Of a DNA stretch of 24,000 bases, positions 4,217 through 21,456 are shown in pieces. Every line of letters begins with the position of its first letter. Position 1 is the first letter of the stretch. The notes beneath the pieces are model-generated. The model was not told where the DNA came from and made no database searches. It saw only the letters and a list, made by a program, of their open reading frames with translations. A program made the translations under genes and the position numbers. The stretch covers positions 146,853 through 170,852 of the forward strand of contig VIAD01000007.1 of the NCBI GenBank assembly GCA_006546595.1, read 5' to 3'. This stretch comes from Moraxellaceae bacterium AER2_44_116 (GTDB lineage Bacteria; Pseudomonadota; Gammaproteobacteria; Pseudomonadales; Moraxellaceae).

Positions 4217-4927
4217 CTACGGTTTAGCCAAATAATCCGCCATCGCCGCAAAGAGCACAAAACAGCTTTCTAATACTTCATCAAACGGTTGGGCAAAACC
4301 ACTATGTACCCAGCGCATGACTATATGGACATTTGCGCCATTTAAGCCTGCGGTGAGCAAATCCACATTCAAGCCTGTTTCGGCAAATCGGGGAAACATC
4401 ACTTGGCCAAATTGCTGTAACAGCGTATCAAAACTACTCATGGTGTCGCGAATCAATACTGCATTTTCAAAACGTACATGCGGCACATCAATAAATAAAA
4501 TACGGGCAATACGAGGATCATTCGACACGTAACGTAAAAACACCGTGAGTCCCAGCCGAATCAAATGTTTTGGCTCTTTGTTTTCTTCCGCTAATATCGT
4601 ACTAATAATGACCTGCTGCATGCCCTTAATCAGTCGCTGATATATCGCCACTAATAATTCTTCGTGATTTTTAAACGACTCATAAAAATAGCGTTCGGTG
4701 AGTTTAGCTTCGGCACAAATTTCACGCACCGTCACGCGATAAAAACCGTGCGTACCAAAACATTGTAAGCCCGCTTCTATTAACTTTTCGTAACGCTCAG
4801 CTTGCCGTTGTTCGGCGCTCACTCCACGAAAACTACGGCGTTTTTTATCTGACAGCTCTTTGTCATCGGTCAATGGTTCAGTCATTTTGAAAAATAACTC
4901 ACTAATTTCGATTTCAGATGTTGACAT
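4217..4927 (-). CDS. TetR/AcrR-family transcriptional regulator
   Basis: 236 aa. HTH LIEAGLQCFGTHGFYRVTVREICAEAKLTERYFYESFKNHEEL. Divergent from the monooxygenase gene. Confidence 0.85.
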   Translation of the reverse strand: MSTSEIEISELFFKMTEPLTDDKELSDKKRRSFRGVSAEQRQAERYEKLIEAGLQCFGTHGFYRVTVREICAEAKLTERYFYESFKNHEELLVAIYQRLIKGMQQVIISTILAEENKEPKHLIRLGLTVFLRYVSNDPRIARILFIDVPHVRFENAVLIRDTMSSFDTLLQQFGQVMFPRFAETGLNVDLLTAGLNGANVHIVMRWVHSGFAQPFDEVLESCFVLFAAMADYLAKP

Positions 4928-4967: not shown

Positions 4968-5065
4968 ACAACTTACGCATTGCTTGGCAATGATTGTGTT
5001 TTGGGAACAGTAAATGACCAACAGGCATTTACTGTGAGCAAATAAACAATCACCGCGTAGGTTAT
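4968..5065 (+). repeat. 98-nt diverged copy C of the three-stem element, in the tetR/monooxygenase divergent control region
   Basis: Shares with copies A and B: ACTTACGCAT, a hairpin in the 13-nt slot (ATTGC-TTG-GCAAT), GTGTTTTGGGA, a hairpin (ACAGTAAATG-N9-CATTTACTGT), and TGTGAGCAAATAAACAATCACCGCGTAGGTTAT. Confidence 0.65.
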
Positions 5066-5089
5066 AACAACCTAGTTGGTATTAAGTAA

Positions 5090-6556
5090 ATGACAACGAT
5101 TAGTCCTGATTATCAAGTTATTGTCGTCGGCACAGGTTTTTCTGGCCTCGGAATGGGTATTGCCTTGAAAAAAGCAGGCATCAACTCCTTTGCCATTTTA
5201 GAAAAAGCCGATGATGTTGGCGGCACATGGCGCGACAACCATTACCCTGGTTGTGCTTGTGACGTGCAATCACACCTATATTCTTTCTCGTTTGAGCCTA
5301 ATCCAAACTGGACACGGATGTATGCGCCTCAGCCAGAAATCAAAAAATACTTGCAACACTGTGCGCGTAAATACGGTTTAATGCCACAAATTCAGTTTGG
5401 CCAAGAAGTCAAAAAAGCTATTTATGACGAACAAAATAAACTTTGGCGTTTAGAAACAGCCGCAGGTAAAACGATTACCTCGCGTATGGTCGTTTCAGGC
5501 ATGGGCGGTTTAAGTACCGCTGCTTACCCTAATATCAAAGGCTTAAATACCTTTAAAGGCAAAACCTTCCACTCACAGGATTGGGATCACGATTACCCAT
5601 TAACAGGTAAACGTGTTGCCGTGATTGGTACAGGCGCAAGTGCAATTCAATTTGTGCCGCAAATCGTGCCACAAGTCGCGCATTTAGACTTATACCAACG
5701 CACACCACCGTGGATTATGCCGAAGCCTGACCGTGAAATTACTTCAGCCGAACGCACTTTGTTTAAATATGTGCCCAAAAGCCAAGAGGCAATTCGCAAC
5801 GCCATTTACTTGCAATTAGAAAGTCGTGTTTTAGGTTTTGTACTCAATCCACGCGTCATGAAATTACCTGAACTCCAAGCACGTCGTCATATTCGCCAAG
5901 CGATTAAAGACCCTGTTTTACGGAAAAAAGTGACACCCGATTACGCTTTTGGTTGTAAGCGAGTGTTGATTTCTAATGATTATTTACCTTCTTTAGCCAA
6001 ACCGAATGTTGATGTCATTAGTCATGGCATTAAAGAAGTACGAGCGAATAGCATCGTCACCGATGACGGCCAAGAACGCATCGTCGATGCCATTATTTAT
6101 GGCACAGGCTTTAAAGCGCAAGACCCTATTCCGCGTGGCGCAGTGTTTGGCAAAAAAGGCGTTGATTTAATTGATACATGGCAACAAGGCGCACAGGCCT
6201 ATTTAGGCAGTGCGGTGAATGGTTTCCCTAACTTCTTTATGTTGATGGGGCCAAACACAGGCTTAGGTCATAGCTCGATGGTGTTTATGATTGAGTCACA
6301 AATTGCCTATGTCATGGACTGCTTAAAACAAATGCAAAAAAATGGCTGGAAAGAAGTCGATGTTCGTGCTGAAGCACAACAAAGCTTTAATACCGACTTG
6401 CAAGAAAAGCTAGGCAACTCGGTGTGGAGTACGGGCTGTAAGAGTTGGTACGTCAATGCGGATGGCAAAAACACGACGTTATGGCCGGGCTTTACCTTCG
6501 ACTTCCGTCGTCAAACTGCCAATTTTGACGCTAAAAACTATGCGGTTGAGCAGTAA
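5090..6556 (+). CDS. Type I Baeyer-Villiger / flavin-containing monooxygenase (FAD, NADPH)
   Basis: 488 aa. First Rossmann motif VVGTGFSGLG. BVMO fingerprint FxGxxxHxxxW[PD] is present as FKGKTFHSQDWD. Second Rossmann motif VIGTGASAIQ. Also carries the YPGCACDVQSHLYSFSF motif. Confidence 0.85.
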   Translation: MTTISPDYQVIVVGTGFSGLGMGIALKKAGINSFAILEKADDVGGTWRDNHYPGCACDVQSHLYSFSFEPNPNWTRMYAPQPEIKKYLQHCARKYGLMPQIQFGQEVKKAIYDEQNKLWRLETAAGKTITSRMVVSGMGGLSTAAYPNIKGLNTFKGKTFHSQDWDHDYPLTGKRVAVIGTGASAIQFVPQIVPQVAHLDLYQRTPPWIMPKPDREITSAERTLFKYVPKSQEAIRNAIYLQLESRVLGFVLNPRVMKLPELQARRHIRQAIKDPVLRKKVTPDYAFGCKRVLISNDYLPSLAKPNVDVISHGIKEVRANSIVTDDGQERIVDAIIYGTGFKAQDPIPRGAVFGKKGVDLIDTWQQGAQAYLGSAVNGFPNFFMLMGPNTGLGHSSMVFMIESQIAYVMDCLKQMQKNGWKEVDVRAEAQQSFNTDLQEKLGNSVWSTGCKSWYVNADGKNTTLWPGFTFDFRRQTANFDAKNYAVEQ

Positions 6557-6572
6557 AAATCCATCACCCCAA

Positions 6573-6593
6573 CCCTCTCCCAATCGGAGAGGG
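6573..6593. repeat. GC-rich hairpin (8-bp stem) between monooxygenase and SDR genes
   Basis: CCCTCTCC-CAATC-GGAGAGGG. No U-tract follows, so it is REP-like or an mRNA-stabilising hairpin rather than a canonical terminator. Confidence 0.5.
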
Positions 6594-6630
6594 AATAACA
6601 CTCACCATTTTCAGATTTAGGAAAACACTC

Positions 6631-7461
6631 ATGAAATTATTTGCTAACAAAGTCGCGGCGATTACAGGTGCAGGTTCAGGTATTGGTCGGGCGTTGGCTC
6701 TCAATTTAGCCCAACAAGGCTGTCATTTAGCGTTAAGCGATGTCAACGAACAAGGCTTAGCGGAAACAGTTAAACAGGCTCAGTCTTTTGGTGTCAAAGT
6801 CACTAGCCAAAAATTAGATGTTGCCAATAAAGACGGTGTTCATGCGTGGGCAGATAGCGTGGTTCGAGACCACGGCAAAGTAAATCTTATCTTCAATAAT
6901 GCGGGCGTTGCTTTGGGTAGTACCGTCGAAGGCATGAGCTACGACGAATTAGCATGGGTGATGAATATTAACTTTTGGGGCGTTGTTTACGGCACGAAAG
7001 CCTTTTTACCGTACCTAAAAGCATCAGGCGATGGCCATATTGTTAATGTATCGAGTGTATTTGGCCTTTGCGCACAACCGACACAAAGCGCGTACAACGC
7101 CAGTAAATTTGCGGTGCGTGGTTTTACCGAAGCCTTGCGTCAAGAATTAGATTTAGAAAAAGCCCCTGTCAGCGTGACCTGTGTTCACCCCGGTGGTATT
7201 AAAACCAATATTGCCAAAGCAGCAAAGATGAATGACAGCATCAGAAGCGTTGGTTTAGACCCGTCAACCAGCACTAAAAATTTCGAGAAAATGTTCCGCA
7301 CCACACCCGCAGAGGCGGCTAACGTTATTTTGAATGCCGTACAAAAAGACTCTCGCCGCGTGTTAATTGGTGGTGATGCCTATGTCATTGATGCGATGCA
7401 ACGTTTGTTGCCAACGAGCTATCAAAGACTGGTAACAATGGGTACACGGTTTATGAAGTAA
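6631..7461 (+). CDS. classical short-chain dehydrogenase/reductase (SDR)
   Basis: 276 aa. Carries TGAGSGIGRA (TGxxxGxG), NNAG, and the catalytic S...YNASK motif. Confidence 0.9.
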   Translation: MKLFANKVAAITGAGSGIGRALALNLAQQGCHLALSDVNEQGLAETVKQAQSFGVKVTSQKLDVANKDGVHAWADSVVRDHGKVNLIFNNAGVALGSTVEGMSYDELAWVMNINFWGVVYGTKAFLPYLKASGDGHIVNVSSVFGLCAQPTQSAYNASKFAVRGFTEALRQELDLEKAPVSVTCVHPGGIKTNIAKAAKMNDSIRSVGLDPSTSTKNFEKMFRTTPAEAANVILNAVQKDSRRVLIGGDAYVIDAMQRLLPTSYQRLVTMGTRFMK

Positions 7462-7473
7462 CTGTCGTCAAGC

Positions 7474-7496
7474 AGGGTGGATTAATAACCCACCCT
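7474..7496. repeat. hairpin (7-bp stem, 9-nt loop) just after the SDR stop
   Basis: AGGGTGG-ATTAATAAC-CCACCCT. No U-tract follows. Confidence 0.45.
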
Positions 7497-7501
7497 ACAA
7501 C

Positions 7502-7619
7502 TAAGTACATCAACAAAAGTTTATTTGTATTTTCCGTTCGCACTGAGCTTGTCGAAGTGTTTGCTGCCAATGGTTCGACAAGCTCACCATGAGCGGTGAA
7601 ACTTTTGTGTAGGTACTTA
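7502..7619. repeat. nested palindromic element (outer and inner inverted repeats) between convergent SDR and ferredoxin-reductase genes
   Basis: Outer inverted repeat: TAAGTACATCAACAAAAGTTT (7502..7522) with AAACTTTTGTGTAGGTACTTA (7599..7619). Inner inverted repeat: CCGTTCGCACTGAGCTTGTCGAA (7534..7556) with TTCGACAAGCTCACCATGAGCGG (7574..7596). Confidence 0.75.
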
Positions 7620-8834
7620 AACTAGCTCTTTTACAGCAATAGACTCATCGACCAATCGGCTAGGCTCAATCACAATACCCTCTGTGATTATTTTTTTACT
7701 TAGCATAAATTCTTGTGGTCGGTTAATGCAGTCTGCTGCAATTAAACGCCCTTCTTTGAAATAAAAAGCAGCAAAACTACGACTGGCCAGTTTATCGCCA
7801 CGAATGACAACATGGTCATAACCTTGGCTTAAGCCAGCAATTTGTAATTTTAGATCGTATTGATCCGACCAAAACCACGGCAAGCTTTTGTATGCTTTCG
7901 TCAAGCCACACAGCGTAGCCGCCGCTGTTTTACCCTGCTCGCTCGCATTGGGAACGGATTCCAAACGCATTCTACGGCCATAAATCGCATTAAAGTGATT
8001 AGCACAGTCGCCCGCTGCAACAACATTGGAGTCGTTGGTACGGCAAAACTCATCAACAATAATACCATTATCGACTTCAATACCCTCCTCCTGAGCCAAT
8101 TCAACATTGGGTAATACACCTACGCCAATAATCACTAAATCCGCAGGAAACTCTACACCATTAGCACACAGCACTTTTTCTGCACGTCCGTCGCCAGTAA
8201 TTGCCTTAACTGAGATACCTGTATGAATTTTTACACCTTCTTCACGGTGAATACGGGTATAAAACTCAGATAGCTCAGGTGCGGTGACCCGTTGCAAAAT
8301 TCTGTCGGCCATTTCTAGCACTACCACATCCATACCCTGCTTTCTTAGTGCAGCCGCCGTTTCTAAGCCAATATAACCGCCACCAATAATCACCGCTCGT
8401 TTGTCTTTGGCAACATAGGGCTGAATGCCTGTCACATCGGCAATGTTTCGCAAATAATGAACGCCCGCTAGCTCTTCACCGACAATAGCTGCTTTTCTGA
8501 CGCGAGCGCCCATGCACAACGCGAGTTTGTCATAGGCAAGTTGCGTGCCGTCGTCGAGCGTGAGTATTTGTTGCACTCGATTGATAGCCGTCACCCGACC
8601 TTGCTTAAACTGGATGTTATTTTTTTCATAAAATGCCGCAGGACGAATCAGTAAATCATCAACAGTTTTTTCACCCGCCAAAAATGTTTTAGACAAAGGT
8701 GGGCGATGATAAGGCAGATAAGGCTCGTCACCGATGACCAAAATATCACCGTCCCAACCCTCCTGACGCAAGCTGGTTGTCAGTTGCGCCGCCGCATGAC
8801 TTGCACCAATAATAATGGCTATTTTGTTGGTCAT
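7617..8834 (-). CDS. FAD-dependent NAD(P)H:ferredoxin reductase (putidaredoxin-reductase type), redox partner of the P450
   Basis: 405 aa. Two dinucleotide-binding motifs (IAIIIGASHAAAQ and AVIIGGGYIGLETAA). PLSK motif near the N-terminus. AAGDCA motif. Last gene of the P450 operon. Confidence 0.9.
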   Translation of the reverse strand: MTNKIAIIIGASHAAAQLTTSLRQEGWDGDILVIGDEPYLPYHRPPLSKTFLAGEKTVDDLLIRPAAFYEKNNIQFKQGRVTAINRVQQILTLDDGTQLAYDKLALCMGARVRKAAIVGEELAGVHYLRNIADVTGIQPYVAKDKRAVIIGGGYIGLETAAALRKQGMDVVVLEMADRILQRVTAPELSEFYTRIHREEGVKIHTGISVKAITGDGRAEKVLCANGVEFPADLVIIGVGVLPNVELAQEEGIEVDNGIIVDEFCRTNDSNVVAAGDCANHFNAIYGRRMRLESVPNASEQGKTAAATLCGLTKAYKSLPWFWSDQYDLKLQIAGLSQGYDHVVIRGDKLASRSFAAFYFKEGRLIAADCINRPQEFMLSKKIITEGIVIEPSRLVDESIAVKELV

Positions 8835-8930
8835 AGGGAATTATCCTGTATCTTCTGAACTGAGCTGAAACACATTGATTGCATGTAACTCATGTTAAAT
8901 CCTGATGCTTTTTATTGGCTTACCTGACAT

Positions 8931-9710
8931 TCACTTAAATTCAAACTGAATATTATCATCAAGCCCATGAGTTTTAACGTAACGCTCTAGCCCCAGTATT
9001 GAGCTATAGGGTGCATTACGCATCATAAAATTGATAGCCCATGCAGGTAAATCTTCACCAGGGTTTACATAACCTTCTAAGTCAAGCTTGATTGATTCAT
9101 TACTGAGTGGTGTGATTTCAATTTTAAACGTAAATTCCTGCGCACGAATCACACCCCGTACTTTCGGAATATAGTCGGGTAATGCATTAAAACGAAGCAC
9201 CAATTTTCCTGTTTGTTTTGAATATGGCTCAATCACAGCACGCAATACCGTATCTCGATCTGGAAATGGTGTTGGCACATTCACCTTTAGATAAAAAAGA
9301 GACTCTCTTGAAGAAACTTTTTTGAGTAGTTTTGAATCCAAACACTCCCAAAACCATCGCTTCCAACTATCACCACCCACTAGCGCCATTGCTGTTTGTT
9401 CCATAGGCACTTTGATAGTGGCTTCTATCTTGAATGTACGGGTATGCTTGCCTTCTTCTTGTTTATACCATGCCTGAATGCCGCGTCGTTTATCATTTTT
9501 AGATTGTATCCAAATATCTTTTTGCCCTTTTTCTTGAAGATAATCCAGATCATTATCATCAGATGCTGCATTAGCAACTCCTACCCACAAAACAAGCATT
9601 AGCTTTAGAACAAGATGACAATAACGACGTTGGTAATCACCAAAAATGTCATAGAGAGACGTTTGCAGTGAGTGCTTACGTTCAAAACCGAGACACTGAA
9701 TCATGGACAT
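8931..9710 (-). CDS. START/SRPBCC-like lipid-binding domain protein with apparent N-terminal signal peptide
   Basis: The ORF-track start at 9752 is a TTG without an SD, so I prefer the first in-frame ATG at 9710 (or 9704). The stretch QRRYCHLVLKLMLVLWVGVANA|ASDD looks like a Sec signal. START-like signature seen by eye: PFPDRDTVLRAV ... VIRAQEFTFKIEITPL ... YVNPGEDLPAWAINFMM. Confidence 0.55.
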   Translation of the reverse strand: MSMIQCLGFERKHSLQTSLYDIFGDYQRRYCHLVLKLMLVLWVGVANAASDDNDLDYLQEKGQKDIWIQSKNDKRRGIQAWYKQEEGKHTRTFKIEATIKVPMEQTAMALVGGDSWKRWFWECLDSKLLKKVSSRESLFYLKVNVPTPFPDRDTVLRAVIEPYSKQTGKLVLRFNALPDYIPKVRGVIRAQEFTFKIEITPLSNESIKLDLEGYVNPGEDLPAWAINFMMRNAPYSSILGLERYVKTHGLDDNIQFEFK

Positions 9711-9751
9711 ACCCGTTAAATTGATAAAAAATTTCCCACATAAGGAATACA

Positions 9752-9789
9752 ACGCTACGTAACATTCGTTTATTTGGGTTACGCAGCGT
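9752..9789 (-). other. intercistronic hairpin between the P450 stop and the START-like gene
   Basis: ACGCTACGTAAC-N14-GTTACGCAGCGT. 12-nt arms with 1 mismatch. Confidence 0.4.
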
Positions 9790-9795
9790 GTACAT

Positions 9796-11253
9796 TTATG
9801 CTTTAGCGGTAAGTTTTACCATCATCTTGGCATAACCTCTAACAAAGTTAGACTGAACAATTTCAGGCTCGCTCAACACTTCGATGTTGTCAAAACGTGC
9901 TAACAACTCTTCCCACAAGATACGCAATTGCAATTCAGCTAAACGATTACCCATACAACGATGGACACCAAAGCCAAAGGACAAATGATTACGCGCACCT
10001 TTACGGTCAATAATAAAATCGTCAGGGTTTTCAATGGCGCGTTCGTCACGATTACCTGAGACATACCACATCACCACTTTATCGCCTTTTTTAATCAGTT
10101 GACCATTTAGCTCAACATCTTGTTTGGCAATACGGCGCATATAAGCTAACGGGGTTTGCCAACGAATAATCTCTGACACCATATTGGGAATGACACTTGG
10201 GTTCTTTTTAAGTTTAGTAAATTCATTGGGAAACAAATTCAACGCATAAACACCGCCAGACATGGAGTTACGCGTGGTGTCATTACCACCCACAATTAAC
10301 AAAGCCAGATTACCCATAAACTCCATCGGCTTTTTAATTAAGTCTTCGGTATCTTTAGAATAAACCAGCATACTCATCACATCGTAGCCCATTGGTACGC
10401 CTGCGGCTTTTTGCGCGGCTTTTTTATACCAAAGCTCGGAGAATTGTTTGGTCATCTCAAAAGCAGCGTTATAAAACTCATCATTGCTACTACCCGGCCC
10501 ACCTGTCGCTTGTGGACTGCCTGCAATAATGTCCGACCAATAAACCAACTGATGACGTTGTTCGTAAGGAAAATCAAATAATGTGGCTAACATGCGCGTC
10601 GTCAATTCAATAGATACGTTTTCTACCCAATCAAAAGGCTTATTGACAGGCAACGCGTCTAAAACTTCTTGGGTGCGAGAACGAATCAAGCCTTCTAACT
10701 CTTTTAAGTTTTTAGGGGCAACCACATCTTGCACCGCCTGACGCTGTTTATCATGCTTGGGTGGATCCATAGCAATAAACATTTCTGCGGGTAAACCTTC
10801 GGGTGTTTGACCAATAATAATCGCAGGTTCGGCAGAAAATAAGTCATGGTTTTTATCTACAAAAACAATATCTTCGTAACGAGTCACCGACCAAAACGCC
10901 CCAAATGGACTATTTTTTTGATAGTGAACAGGACACTCATCACGTAAGCGCTTAAAGTAGGGATTTACTTGATGTTGTCGATATAAAAACGGATTACTGA
11001 CATCAATGTCTTCTAGTTTTACGGTTGACACATCGGGAATTGGCTGTTCAATAAACTCCTCAAACGGTTTGGTTTGCAATACCTTATGTTTTACCGTTTG
11101 AAAAATCTGCACGCCTTTCACTAGCATAGGAATAGGCACATTCGCCGATACTTTTTCGACCACAAAGTTTGAAGCCTTTTCAATAGCAGGTACTTTTTCT
11201 AGCTCGGTAATAACCGAAGATGCTTTTTCAATAGCAGATGTTAAGAGGCTCAT
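9796..11253 (-). CDS. Cytochrome P450, CYP153 family (alkane omega-hydroxylase type)
   Basis: Heme loop FGFGVHRCMGNRLAE. I-helix LLIVGGNDTTRNS. Long stretches match CYP153A proteins as I recall them (DVSNPFLYRQ, YFKRLRDECPVHYQKNSPFGAFWSVTRYEDI, IPNMVSEIIRWQTPLAYMRRIAKQDVEL). The track start at 11286 is a TTG with no SD. ATG 11253 is preceded by GGTGA. Confidence 0.93.
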   Translation of the reverse strand: MSLLTSAIEKASSVITELEKVPAIEKASNFVVEKVSANVPIPMLVKGVQIFQTVKHKVLQTKPFEEFIEQPIPDVSTVKLEDIDVSNPFLYRQHQVNPYFKRLRDECPVHYQKNSPFGAFWSVTRYEDIVFVDKNHDLFSAEPAIIIGQTPEGLPAEMFIAMDPPKHDKQRQAVQDVVAPKNLKELEGLIRSRTQEVLDALPVNKPFDWVENVSIELTTRMLATLFDFPYEQRHQLVYWSDIIAGSPQATGGPGSSNDEFYNAAFEMTKQFSELWYKKAAQKAAGVPMGYDVMSMLVYSKDTEDLIKKPMEFMGNLALLIVGGNDTTRNSMSGGVYALNLFPNEFTKLKKNPSVIPNMVSEIIRWQTPLAYMRRIAKQDVELNGQLIKKGDKVVMWYVSGNRDERAIENPDDFIIDRKGARNHLSFGFGVHRCMGNRLAELQLRILWEELLARFDNIEVLSEPEIVQSNFVRGYAKMMVKLTAKA

Positions 11254-11330
11254 AATTTTCACCAAATCATCTAGACGTTTTTTCAATTACTTTTATCAAG
11301 TAACTGCTTGTTATATTGATGCTTTTTGCA

Positions 11331-11651
11331 TCACATTTGAAACTCTGGTAAATGCACGATCATGCCATTCATGGCATCTGATGCTTTAATTTGGCAAGAA
11401 AGACGGGATGTTGGTGTTTTTTCGGGGGTCATTTCGAGCATTTGTAACTCATCGGGATTGATGCTGCCCGCCGCTTTTATCCATTGGCTATCAACAATGA
11501 CATGACACGTTCCACAGGCGCACGCACCACCACAATCGGCATCAATACCTGGTACGCCATTATCCATCGCTATCTGCATCAAGGACTTGCCCACTTCAAG
11601 CTCAACCTGATGTTGTTTGCCATCATGCTCTACAAACGTAATATTGCCCAT
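11331..11651 (-). CDS. [2Fe-2S] ferredoxin, adrenodoxin/putidaredoxin type
   Basis: 106 aa. Cluster ligands CGGACACGTCH plus the downstream LSCQI. GGGAGA SD upstream. First gene of the P450 operon. Confidence 0.9.
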   Translation of the reverse strand: MGNITFVEHDGKQHQVELEVGKSLMQIAMDNGVPGIDADCGGACACGTCHVIVDSQWIKAAGSINPDELQMLEMTPEKTPTSRLSCQIKASDAMNGMIVHLPEFQM

Positions 11652-11751
11652 GAATCTATCTCCCGTGTTGAATTGAACACACTAATGACTTTTAGAAATA
11701 TCAGCGTGCAACTTAGTCATCTTAGAATAGGATGATACCAAGCGTTATGAC

Positions 11752-11780
11752 AGGTCATTTCTTGACAAATAGAGGTCATT
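11752..11780. promoter_or_regulatory. direct repeat AGGTCATT x2 at 21-bp spacing, candidate AraC-family binding site
   Basis: AGGTCATT at 11752..11759 and 11773..11780, exactly two helical turns apart. Located in the divergent region between the P450 operon and the AraC gene. Confidence 0.35.
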
Positions 11781-11816
11781 AAAAGACACTGATAGAATTT
11801 ACATGGAGCAATTAAG

Positions 11817-12893
11817 ATGTCTGACGCACATTATTTTGCCGAAGATATTGCCAATATCCCTTCCAATTACTCGCGTATTATTGGTCGTGAGCTAGGTTTA
11901 CAAATTCGAGACTTGCCTAAATTATTAAAATTTACCCAATTAAGCCCTGAGCAGTTTTTGCAAGAAGACATTTTGCTCACTACACGACAGCAAATTCAAA
12001 TCCTTAATAACGCGTTGCAACTGTCACCTCATCAAGATTTTGGTTTACGTTTAGGTCGTCACCTAACACCTGCTACACATGGCGCAATGGGCTTTTTGGT
12101 CAATAGCAGCCCTAATTTGATGATGGCGTTACAAGCATTTCAGAGTTTTGTGCCAACCAGAATGAGCTTTACGCGCTTAAATTTTCAAACTAAGCAAGAT
12201 TGGGTTGAATGTGAGATTAAGTTTGACGCGGTCTTAAATGCGGAAGTTTATCGCAGCCTATTAGAATGTTGTTTAATGGTCTTTGTCGCGTGTGCCGAGT
12301 TTATTATTGGTCGTCCCTTAACTGAGGCTCATATTGATTTTAGCTTCGCGAAGCCCAGCTATAGCCATGTGTATAGCGATTATTTTGCAGGGAGTTACCA
12401 ATTTTCAGCATCACATTCAAGCATCAAAATCCCTTTAGACATTTGTCATATTGTCAATGTCTCAGCAAACCATGAAAACTATGTTTTAGCGATGAAACAA
12501 TGTGAAATCATGTTGTCACAATTAAAATCACACAAATGTAGCACCACCTACCAATTACAAAAAATGATGCTATCGCAACCCTTAGGCACACTCAGCGAAG
12601 AAGATGCTGCGGCCGCACTCTTTATTAGCAAACGCACGCTTGCACGCCGTTTAGAAAAAGAAGGCAGTAGCTATACAGATATTCGTGAAAAATTGCTATC
12701 AGAACAAGCCAGTAGCTATTTGCGTGACAGTCAAATGTCGGTAGAAGCCATTGCCTTGCTACTAAACTACCATGACAGTGCTAATTTTCGCCGCGCTTTT
12801 AAACGTTGGCGAAATCTTTCTCCCACACAATACCGCGAGCAGTTTACCAAAGAGGCTTCGACTCCTCTCAGCCAGCATAAAAATGTACTCTGA
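11817..12893 (+). CDS. AraC/XylS-family transcriptional regulator (CYP153-operon regulator type)
   Basis: 358 aa. C-terminal double HTH (ALFISKRTLARRLEKEGSSYTDI ... LLLNYHDSANFRRAFKRWRNLSPTQYR). Divergent from the P450 operon. GGAG SD at 11805. Confidence 0.9.
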   Translation: MSDAHYFAEDIANIPSNYSRIIGRELGLQIRDLPKLLKFTQLSPEQFLQEDILLTTRQQIQILNNALQLSPHQDFGLRLGRHLTPATHGAMGFLVNSSPNLMMALQAFQSFVPTRMSFTRLNFQTKQDWVECEIKFDAVLNAEVYRSLLECCLMVFVACAEFIIGRPLTEAHIDFSFAKPSYSHVYSDYFAGSYQFSASHSSIKIPLDICHIVNVSANHENYVLAMKQCEIMLSQLKSHKCSTTYQLQKMMLSQPLGTLSEEDAAAALFISKRTLARRLEKEGSSYTDIREKLLSEQASSYLRDSQMSVEAIALLLNYHDSANFRRAFKRWRNLSPTQYREQFTKEASTPLSQHKNVL

Positions 12894-12905
12894 GCGGAGT
12901 CGAAT
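12856..12905. repeat. REP-like palindrome (16-nt arms, 18-nt loop), copy overlapping the 3' end of the AraC gene
   Basis: Arms CTTCGACTCCTCTCAG and CTGAGCGGAGTCGAAT around an 18-nt loop. Same family as the copies at 15295 and 20196. Confidence 0.8.
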
Positions 12906-13001
12906 GGCTAGATAAGTTAATACAACAGAATCTTGATAACGCATCATCATTTTTACCGCCACGCTTGCCATGCACACAAAATAAGCATATTTTAAATAGC
13001 A

Positions 13002-14725: not shown

Positions 14726-14736
14726 GTTGAACAAAT

Positions 14737-14835
14737 AGGACTTACGCATTTTGCCAAAATTAGCGCGTTTTGTGAGCATAAAGGCATTGAAAATGCCTGA
14801 AATGTGAACAAATAAGCGATAACCGCGTAAGTCCT
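14737..14835 (+). repeat. 99-nt three-stem palindromic element, copy A
   Basis: Terminal inverted repeat AGGACTTACGC...GCGTAAGTCCT. Inner hairpins ATTTTG-C-CAAAAT and GGCATT-GAA-AATGCC. 84/99 identical to copy B, in the same orientation. Confidence 0.85.
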
Positions 14836-14855
14836 AACAAAAAGAGAGTCCGCAC

Positions 14856-15278: not shown

Positions 15279-15294
15279 GTTCGCTTAATCAACC

Positions 15295-15363
15295 CTTAGA
15301 CTCCGCTCAGGGAGCGTTTTTGCGCTAACTGAGCGGAGTTGAGGTGGTTGAGCGAAGTCGAAT
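15295..15363. repeat. REP-like palindrome with an extra degenerate right arm, between convergent osmC and cyclase genes
   Basis: Arms CTTAGACTCCGCTCAG and CTGAGCGGAGTTGAGG around an 18-nt loop. A third half-site TTGAGCGAAGTCGAAT lies at 15348..15363. Confidence 0.8.
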
Positions 15364-20173: not shown

Positions 20174-20195
20174 GCTTCCCCCTTGAACTGAGTCC

Positions 20196-20245
20196 CTTCG
20201 ACTCCGCTCAGGGAGCGTTTTTCTGTTGGCTGAGCGGAGTCGAAG
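20196..20245. repeat. REP-like palindrome, perfect 16-bp arms, between convergent kinase and hypothetical genes
   Basis: Arms CTTCGACTCCGCTCAG and CTGAGCGGAGTCGAAG are perfectly complementary. The 18-nt loop is GGAGCGTTTTTCTGTTGG. Its position suits a bidirectional terminator. Confidence 0.85.
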
Positions 20246-20290
20246 CTAACCCAAAAATCTCGTCAACGCCCCAATATTCAACAGAACCTA

Positions 20291-21337: not shown

Positions 21338-21347
21338 TAAAAAACTC

Positions 21348-21446
21348 AGGACTTACGCATCGCGCCGCGATTAGCGCGTTTTGCGAGCATAAAGCCGCCT
21401 AAAGCGGCTGAAATGTGAACAAATAAGCGATAACCGCGTAAGTCCT
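21348..21446 (+). repeat. 99-nt three-stem palindromic element, copy B
   Basis: Same terminal inverted repeat and same joining segments as copy A. Inner hairpins ATCGCG-C-CGCGAT and GCCGC-CTAAA-GCGGC. Confidence 0.85.
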
Positions 21447-21456
21447 AAACTTAGGC

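Follow-up and report, generated by a model that had tools for sequence, protein, structure and literature searches.

The repeat that occurs three times in the window (the whole stretch of 24,000 nucleotides that was analysed, from Moraxellaceae bacterium AER2_44_116) belongs to an undescribed family of foldback, MITE-like repeats, of a type already known, and is not a new RNA gene. The family is probably MITE-type, non-autonomous mobile DNA confined to Agitococcus (Moraxellaceae), with a fold that is needed for its propagation; a probability of roughly 0.7 is given to this reading.

Copies in the window

Two copies, A and B, had been described in an earlier note at 14737-14835 and 21348-21446, both on the + strand and 99 nt each, and these coordinates proved correct. 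With the covariance model of the family three copies (A, B and C) were found in the window, and the same scan returned no copy beyond these. Their features are as follows.

4968..5066, + strand: copy C, old and diverged; 72 bits with family model R1
14731..14735, no strand: left target-site duplication of copy A (ACAAA); ACAAA is single in the E19 genome (locus L083)
14736..14836, + strand: copy A, full element, T + 99-nt core 14737-14835 + A; 116 bits with family model R1
14737..14747, + strand: left terminal inverted repeat of copy A, the 5' half of the closing stem, AGGACTTACGC
14748..14760, + strand: hairpin 1 of copy A (ATTTTG-C-CAAAAT); its pairs 14:22, 15:21 and 16:20 covary family-wide
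14761..14822, + strand: long imperfect hairpin of copy A, from the minimum-free-energy fold, pair counts and joint conservation
14782-14798, + strand: hairpin 2 of copy A, the variable tip of the long hairpin
14825..14835, + strand: right terminal inverted repeat of copy A, the 3' half of the closing stem, GCGTAAGTCCT
14837..14841, no strand: right target-site duplication of copy A (ACAAA)
21343..21346, no strand: left target-site duplication of copy B (AACT); the empty site reads ..AAAAACT/TAGG..
21347..21447, + strand: copy B, full element, C + core 21348-21446 + A; 115 bits with family model R1
21359-21371, + strand: hairpin 1 of copy B
21393-21409, + strand: hairpin 2 of copy B
21448..21451, no strand: right target-site duplication of copy B (AACT)

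Copies A and B have the same 11-bp closing stem, as had been noted, and differ at 15 of 99 positions (14-16, 20-22, 37, 48, 50-53, 57, 58 and 60). Fourteen of these differences lie in hairpins, six in hairpin 1 (14-16 and 20-22) and eight in hairpin 2 (48, 50-53, 57, 58 and 60), again as claimed. Folded as single strands, both copies are far more stable than shuffled sequences (z = -5.9 for copy A and -4.9 for copy B), with none of 200 shuffles equally stable. Copy C is located between a divergent TetR-family gene (4217-4927, - strand) and a monooxygenase gene (5090-6556, + strand). A recognisable target-site duplication is no longer seen around it, and its orthologues are present in E19 and at locus L065.

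Copy number and boundaries of the element

One genome per species was scanned with a pattern built from the conserved parts of the element. More than 104 loci were found, all of them in seven genomes of Agitococcus/Moraxellaceae, A. lubricus DSM 5822 among them; the source sequences are mostly metagenome-assembled genomes. In the 0.72 Mb of fetched loci, 143 nhmmer matches and 141 covariance-model matches were obtained, so that about 140 copies could be gathered in the fetched DNA. No account of Agitococcus repeats was found in the literature search, in which the terminal sequence turned up only in unrelated primers, and no Rfam family matched; the earlier statement that this is not a named family is in agreement with both results.

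The core is exactly 99 nt long in 89 of 123 distinct cores, and the same core was found, identical, at loci with unrelated flanks. In 91% of copies the core is preceded by C or T, and in 97% it is followed by A, which indicates that the element proper is 101 nt. The real element is therefore probably two bases longer than the core, including the 5' pyrimidine (T at 14736, C at 21347) and the 3' A (14836 and 21447). Its ends read 5'-Y AGGACTTACGC ... GCGTAAGTCCT A-3' and it has no coding capacity. The terminal inverted repeats are 11-12 bp long; their positions 3-11 are nearly invariant, and at least 97% of copies have them paired with 89-97, a conservation that is partly due to ascertainment, since the collecting pattern fixes positions 4-13, 73-79 and 86-93.

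All structural features by which a MITE is recognised are present, save a known partner. The element is short (99-101 nt) and non-coding, it ends in the terminal inverted repeats AGGACTTACGC/GCGTAAGTCCT, it is flanked by a target-site duplication of variable length (4 or 5 bp), and it occurs as many dispersed copies with both filled and empty orthologous sites.

Consensus fold and covariation

The consensus fold consists of the 11-bp closing stem, a 5-bp side hairpin (12-24) and a long imperfect hairpin (25-85), making nearly the whole element a foldback. In the long hairpin, sequence conservation is seen at the internal loops (G27.A83, G31.A78, T32.T77 and the tandem G38.A71/A39.G70), while the tip of this hairpin (positions 46-62) is variable and may even be exchanged for another palindrome, provided that pairing holds.

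The compensatory stem changes and conserved joints that had been described from the window were upheld on 141 copies from eight genomes. In this alignment 95.0% of the cells form a standard pair, compared with 86.6% after shuffling and 31-40% with the partner slid. Changes on both sides were seen at 30 of 36 pairs (expected 15.1 ± 1.8) and the covariation score was 0.253 (control 0.116), counts in which the copies are related and the events are not independent. On any of these measures the observed value was reached by 0 of 500 shuffles, and covariation is thus supported in the larger alignment.

An ungapped, alignment-free count on the 89 unique 99-nt copies agrees with the model alignment. 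Pair 14:22 is T:A in 50 copies and C:G in 34, 15:21 is T:A in 44 and G:C in 42, 48:60 is C:G in 50, T:A in 27 and G:C in six, and 42:67 is A:T in 68 and T:A in 17. The variants of hairpin 1 in the family are T:A/C:G at 14:22, T:A/G:C at 15:21 and C:G/T:A at 16:20. The single difference between copies A and B that had been assigned to an otherwise invariant joint, T/C at position 37, does lie outside both hairpins, but it is not unpaired: it covaries with position 72, with T:A in 45, C:G in 12 and T:G in 24 of the same 89 copies.

Of 117 copies, 91 had a top strand more stable than the bottom strand when RNA parameters were used, and 101 when DNA parameters were used. At several covarying pairs G:T is commoner than A:C on the top strand. 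This asymmetry, behind which stand few independent lineages, hints at a single-strand-specific fold.

Target-site duplications and empty sites

The two flanks of one copy resemble each other far beyond shuffled pairings (z = 9). With the register fixed as (repeat)-Y-AGGAC...GTCCT-A-(repeat), a perfect direct repeat of at least 4 nt flanks 49 of 126 copies, about five being expected: 29 copies with 4 nt (shuffled control 3.9), 19 with 5 nt (shuffled control 0.8) and one with 6 nt. Other geometries were considered, namely an element without Y and A, duplications of 6-7 bp, and TA, and were fitted less well than this register.

Empty sites were found for copies A and B. The window is about 95% identical to the E19 genome and otherwise collinear with it. 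In E19 the gene pair that flanks copy A is contiguous, the orthologous site is without the element and ACAAA is present once rather than twice; relative to the predicted pre-insertion sequence, this site has one surplus G. The site of copy B is empty in a metagenome contig (L108), where the sequence given in the list above stands against ..AACT-C-(99 nt)-A-AACT-TAGG.. in the window, and it follows that the C at -1 of copy B is not target DNA. The same site is filled in L106 and L107, the latter from one metagenome with L108. Four more candidate empty sites have a flank identity of 67-77%, too diverged for a clean reading. Insertion sites are A/T-rich, intergenic and used in either orientation. 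At locus L013 a 99-nt element is nested in the loop of another palindromic repeat.

Derived forms also occur. In composite copies at four loci the tip hairpin is swapped for a longer, G+C-rich foreign palindrome, and the composite copy at L012 has its own duplication. Sites of the composite-type module are L086 3209-3335, L053 2086-2209, L009 4681-4807 and L012 143-245. In the window, a G+C-rich hairpin (CAACCCTCTCCC..GGAGAGGG) at about 6570-6596, 3' of the monooxygenase gene, is similar to the foreign module at the centre of the composites, which suggests a third small palindromic repeat family able to occupy the tip of the 99-nt element. Mini-derivatives of 25-60 nt retain both ends (L034 1138-1164, L039 7059-7083, L098 4125-4153, L031 1823-1861 and L094 7781-7836). 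The flanking duplication is kept in at least two of them, and their internal junctions are unlike each other, so that each seems to have arisen by its own internal deletion within the palindrome.

For practical purposes, the family can be masked as a repeat in the annotation of Agitococcus genomes and can serve as a marker of insertion polymorphism at the strain level.

Shared and private variants

Variants present in at least three copies were taken as shared, i.e. propagated, and those in one or two copies as rare, i.e. mostly arisen after insertion. Stem cells are still paired in 89.8% of the shared variants and in 19.5% of the rare ones (Fisher p = 6e-36), the latter value being about the expectation for random single substitutions. 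Among the private stem variants 62 are broken and 15 paired. The frequency of rare variants, per site and copy, is 1.6-2.0%, equally in joints, long-hairpin stems and hairpin stems, and private mutations strike loops at the same rate as stems and joints. Shared variants are concentrated in the two hairpins (about 25%) and scarce in the joints (7%), with none in the core of the inverted repeats.

Since shared variants are paired and private ones break pairs, the fold appears to be selected in the propagating lineage. Since the rare variants break pairs and fall at an equal rate on all parts, inserted copies decay neutrally. A lineage has to keep both the fold and the joint sequences if it is to continue producing copies, which speaks for a role in propagation and against a function for the host at single loci. 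The earlier conclusion that the pattern is not that of a repeat in neutral decay is thereby divided. Single copies do decay neutrally, with 80% of private mutations breaking pairs; constraint is seen only in the differences between propagating subfamilies. The contrast between variants that spread and variants that stay private is a clean natural experiment, which sets what propagation needs apart from what the host needs at an insertion site, and here the fold falls on the side of propagation.

The pairing may instead be kept by mutation, if template switching in quasi-palindromes copies one arm onto the other and the fold itself has no function. That template switching both creates hairpins and maintains them has been documented (PMC8794818). 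Adjacent pair blocks swapped jointly make up several of the subfamily differences (e.g. TTC/GAA vs CGC/GCG), the orthologues of copy C differ by adjacent paired swaps, and eight rare double changes with pairing kept were counted among the private variants. Private mutations are nevertheless overwhelmingly single-sided and pair-breaking, and shared variants would be expected to resemble them if propagation took no account of structure, yet they are 90% paired; the mismatches G.A, T.T and tandem G.A/A.G are left uncorrected in 85-92 of 92 copies. The mechanism can supply compensated variants, but a filter against the spread of uncompensated ones is still needed, and as an explanation of the whole pattern it is judged unlikely.

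A few orthologous copies were compared directly. Between the window and L065, copy C shows about five compensated pair changes, an exception to the pattern of decay that could be due to template switching or to local selection; three other orthologous pairs show single changes only. The orthologous copies L056 5871-5969 and L066 4371-4469 differ at 11 of 99 positions, clustered in and around the tip loop, between flanks that are 94-99% identical. From this pair, mutation may be faster within the element than around it.

Proposed mechanism and search for a partner

A DNA hairpin recognised by a protein, which the earlier note had offered as one of two possibilities, is the reading that fits best, and its likely setting, we infer, is mobilisation of the element. 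The fold would be required for propagation and not for a host function at the insertion sites. A mobilising enzyme supplied in trans would most likely recognise the element either as a folded single strand or as a cruciform extruded from the duplex, with sequence-specific contacts at the conserved loops and with the stems as a scaffold. The partner enzyme would be of the DDE type and make staggered cuts, to which the duplication of 4-5 bp points; together with the terminal C, this duplication might hint at a partner from the IS1380 family. The need of the fold for mobilisation is reached by elimination, and no DDE transposase is known to depend on internal hairpins. The variation of the duplication between 4 and 5 bp was likewise counted against this explanation.

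The gene of such a partner transposase would be bounded by YAGGACTTACGC...GCGTAAGTCCTA and by 4-5 bp duplications. A search of 0.73 Mb of Agitococcus loci for an autonomous element that shares these inverted repeats found none, and the plasmids, phages and viral contigs searched gave no match. Solo halves of the inverted repeat and pairs of halves 140-6600 nt apart were considered as candidates and rejected; these sequences are copies of truncated, mini or unrelated kinds, with ordinary genes as the intervening ORFs. If the partner is found, the question of why an element of the cut-and-paste type needs internal hairpins becomes testable; bcr1, ERIC and Correia-type repeats raise this question too.

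A bolder version, to which only a small probability is given, has the enzyme read the folded single strand through its three-way junction, conserved G.A loops and free-sequence stems, yet integrate by a staggered cut with duplication of 4-5 bp. If true, recognition of structure as in attC and REP would be combined with DDE-like integration, a new mode of mobilisation. A retro-mobile variant of this idea, copied through RNA, is less likely, because exactly one A stands between core and duplication, and neither a variable A tail nor a 5' truncation was observed in the copies.

Gene context and comparison with RNA families

A structured non-coding RNA was the other possibility raised at first. 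Either as a family of small RNA genes or as a cis-acting mRNA element (a stabiliser or processing site), it would have its fold kept by the host at each locus. The stable folds and the covariation are what such an RNA would show; the better folding of the top strand with RNA parameters and the excess of G:T over A:C at several covarying pairs agree with it as well, and a related case, bcr1, is reported to be transcribed (PMC3184786). Against this, the orientation of the copies relative to flanking genes is unbiased: between co-directional genes, 34 copies lie in one orientation and 32 in the other, with 19 copies between divergent and 10 between convergent genes. The copies are intergenic, some only tens of bases from a stop codon. 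No promoter-like or terminator-like site was found inside the window copies; neither a promoter and terminator of its own nor a constant orientation and context, by which an independent small RNA gene is known, was observed. Copies are missing from orthologous sites in close relatives, and in-place mutations break pairs at the neutral rate. The claim of a structured RNA is not sustained for what is insertion-polymorphic DNA with target-site duplications, and this reading is regarded as very improbable.

No Rfam family reached its threshold, the window giving 0 matches at the gathering thresholds. The best score below threshold was a full-length alignment of copy A with RF01699 Clostridiales-1 (29.3 bits, threshold 48), with which it has the central-hairpin motif UGAGCAU...AAUGNGAA in common. 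Copy B scored 16.4 bits against the same family, and the copies at L009 and L015 gave no match to it, either in equally small targeted scans or in scans of eight whole loci including both. Membership of RF01699 was rejected as below threshold and not reproduced by other copies; the resemblance is thus ascribed to chance among long hairpins.

At 16 loci (e.g. L047 2062, L103 4817 and L069 2520) an inverted element lies 5' of a gene, with a start codon 56 nt into the element and a frame that reads into the gene. These frames are probably an artefact of the rule by which an ORF begins at its first start codon; they might also extend or alter N-termini.

Neighbouring repeats and a possible island

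A second dispersed palindromic family, of about 50 nt, consists of GACTCCGCTCAG, a variable loop and CTGAGCGGAGTC, and is present in the window at 12854-12907, 15284-15342 and 20194-20246, with a related palindrome at about 7540-7595. Each copy lies just 3' of genes, and the family was also seen in other Agitococcus loci; it is a copy of this family that hosts the 99-nt element in its loop at L013.

The block from about 7462 to 12963 of the window contains genes for a ferredoxin reductase, a hypothetical protein, a CYP153-type P450, a ferredoxin and an AraC regulator. It is flanked on both sides by the palindromic repeats of about 50 nt and is missing from E19, and therefore looks like an indel of an alkane-hydroxylase island. 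In the HK-STAS genome (L086, about 6654-6674), copy C and the adjacent monooxygenase gene (window 4970-6630) are absent. The breakpoint is exactly at the left end of copy C, where the window reads ..GTCCAC/AACTTACGC and L086 reads ..GTCCAC/TTATCACG.

Comparison with known systems

In attC sites and the ends of IS200/IS605 elements the structure is conserved, the stem sequence is free and specific unpaired bases are conserved. The Agitococcus element shows the same combination, and its top strand is systematically the stabler one (DNA parameters). It might on these grounds be mobilised as a single strand by an enzyme already known to recognise hairpins, be it a REP/RAYT or IS200/IS605-like HUH transposase or an integron integrase acting on an attC-like fold. 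Those systems, however, have neither a target-site duplication nor perfect terminal inverted repeats, and the element has both; it lies outside cassette arrays, it is without the GTTRRRY/RYYYAAC ends of attC, and its 99-101 nt and three stems set it apart from REPs, which measure 20-40 nt. This alternative is held to be very improbable. Recognition of a folded strand may still work similarly in the Agitococcus element, while the organisation of attC, IS200/IS605 and REP hairpins, in arrays or in association with a RAYT or TnpA gene, is not that of the element.

Assignment to the individual classes was rejected for the following reasons. A REP or BIME mobilised by RAYT would be a lone G+C-rich imperfect palindrome, 20-40 nt in length, that carries a conserved tetranucleotide and lacks a duplication; the element differs in its length and three stems, its G+C content of about 40-50% and its duplication of 4-5 bp. 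An integron attC site is contradicted by the ends AGGAC/GTCCT and by copies that are single and dispersed among unrelated genes, GTTGAAC 5' of copy A being insufficient. Derivation from IS200/IS605 is contradicted by the inverted repeats and the duplication, and the 5' flank is variable save for A/T richness, without a fixed tetra- or pentanucleotide. The inverted repeats and duplication thus set the family apart from REP, attC and IS200/IS605-type sequences.

Mobile DNA of the MITE type, the reading preferred here, has several described counterparts. Correia/NEMIS in Neisseria, ERIC in enterobacteria, Nezha and Chunjie share inverted repeats, target duplication, intergenic location in both orientations, filled and empty sites and a hairpin formed by the whole element (PMC3184786). 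Their terminal sequences and duplication lengths differ from those of the Agitococcus element, with 9 bp for Chunjie (PMC3184786). Unlike the classical MITEs, the Agitococcus element has an extra side hairpin, internal loops conserved in sequence and a swappable central hairpin, and for it propagated and private variants have been contrasted by measurement. The target duplication of Correia elements is TA.

Compared by description and not by sequence, the nearest described behaviour is that of bcr1 of the Bacillus cereus group. This repeat belongs to a different phylum and measures about 155 bp, compared with 101 bp for the Agitococcus element. Copies of bcr1 are dispersed and intergenic, with 5-bp direct repeats, a non-conserved distribution among close strains and no known transposase; they form a multi-stem, cruciform-like fold that is kept by compensatory changes, with stability lost in individual copies (PMC3184786). 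By this comparison the Agitococcus element resembles bcr1 as a short dispersed intergenic repeat with direct-repeat flanks, a compensated multi-stem fold, decaying copies and no known transposase.
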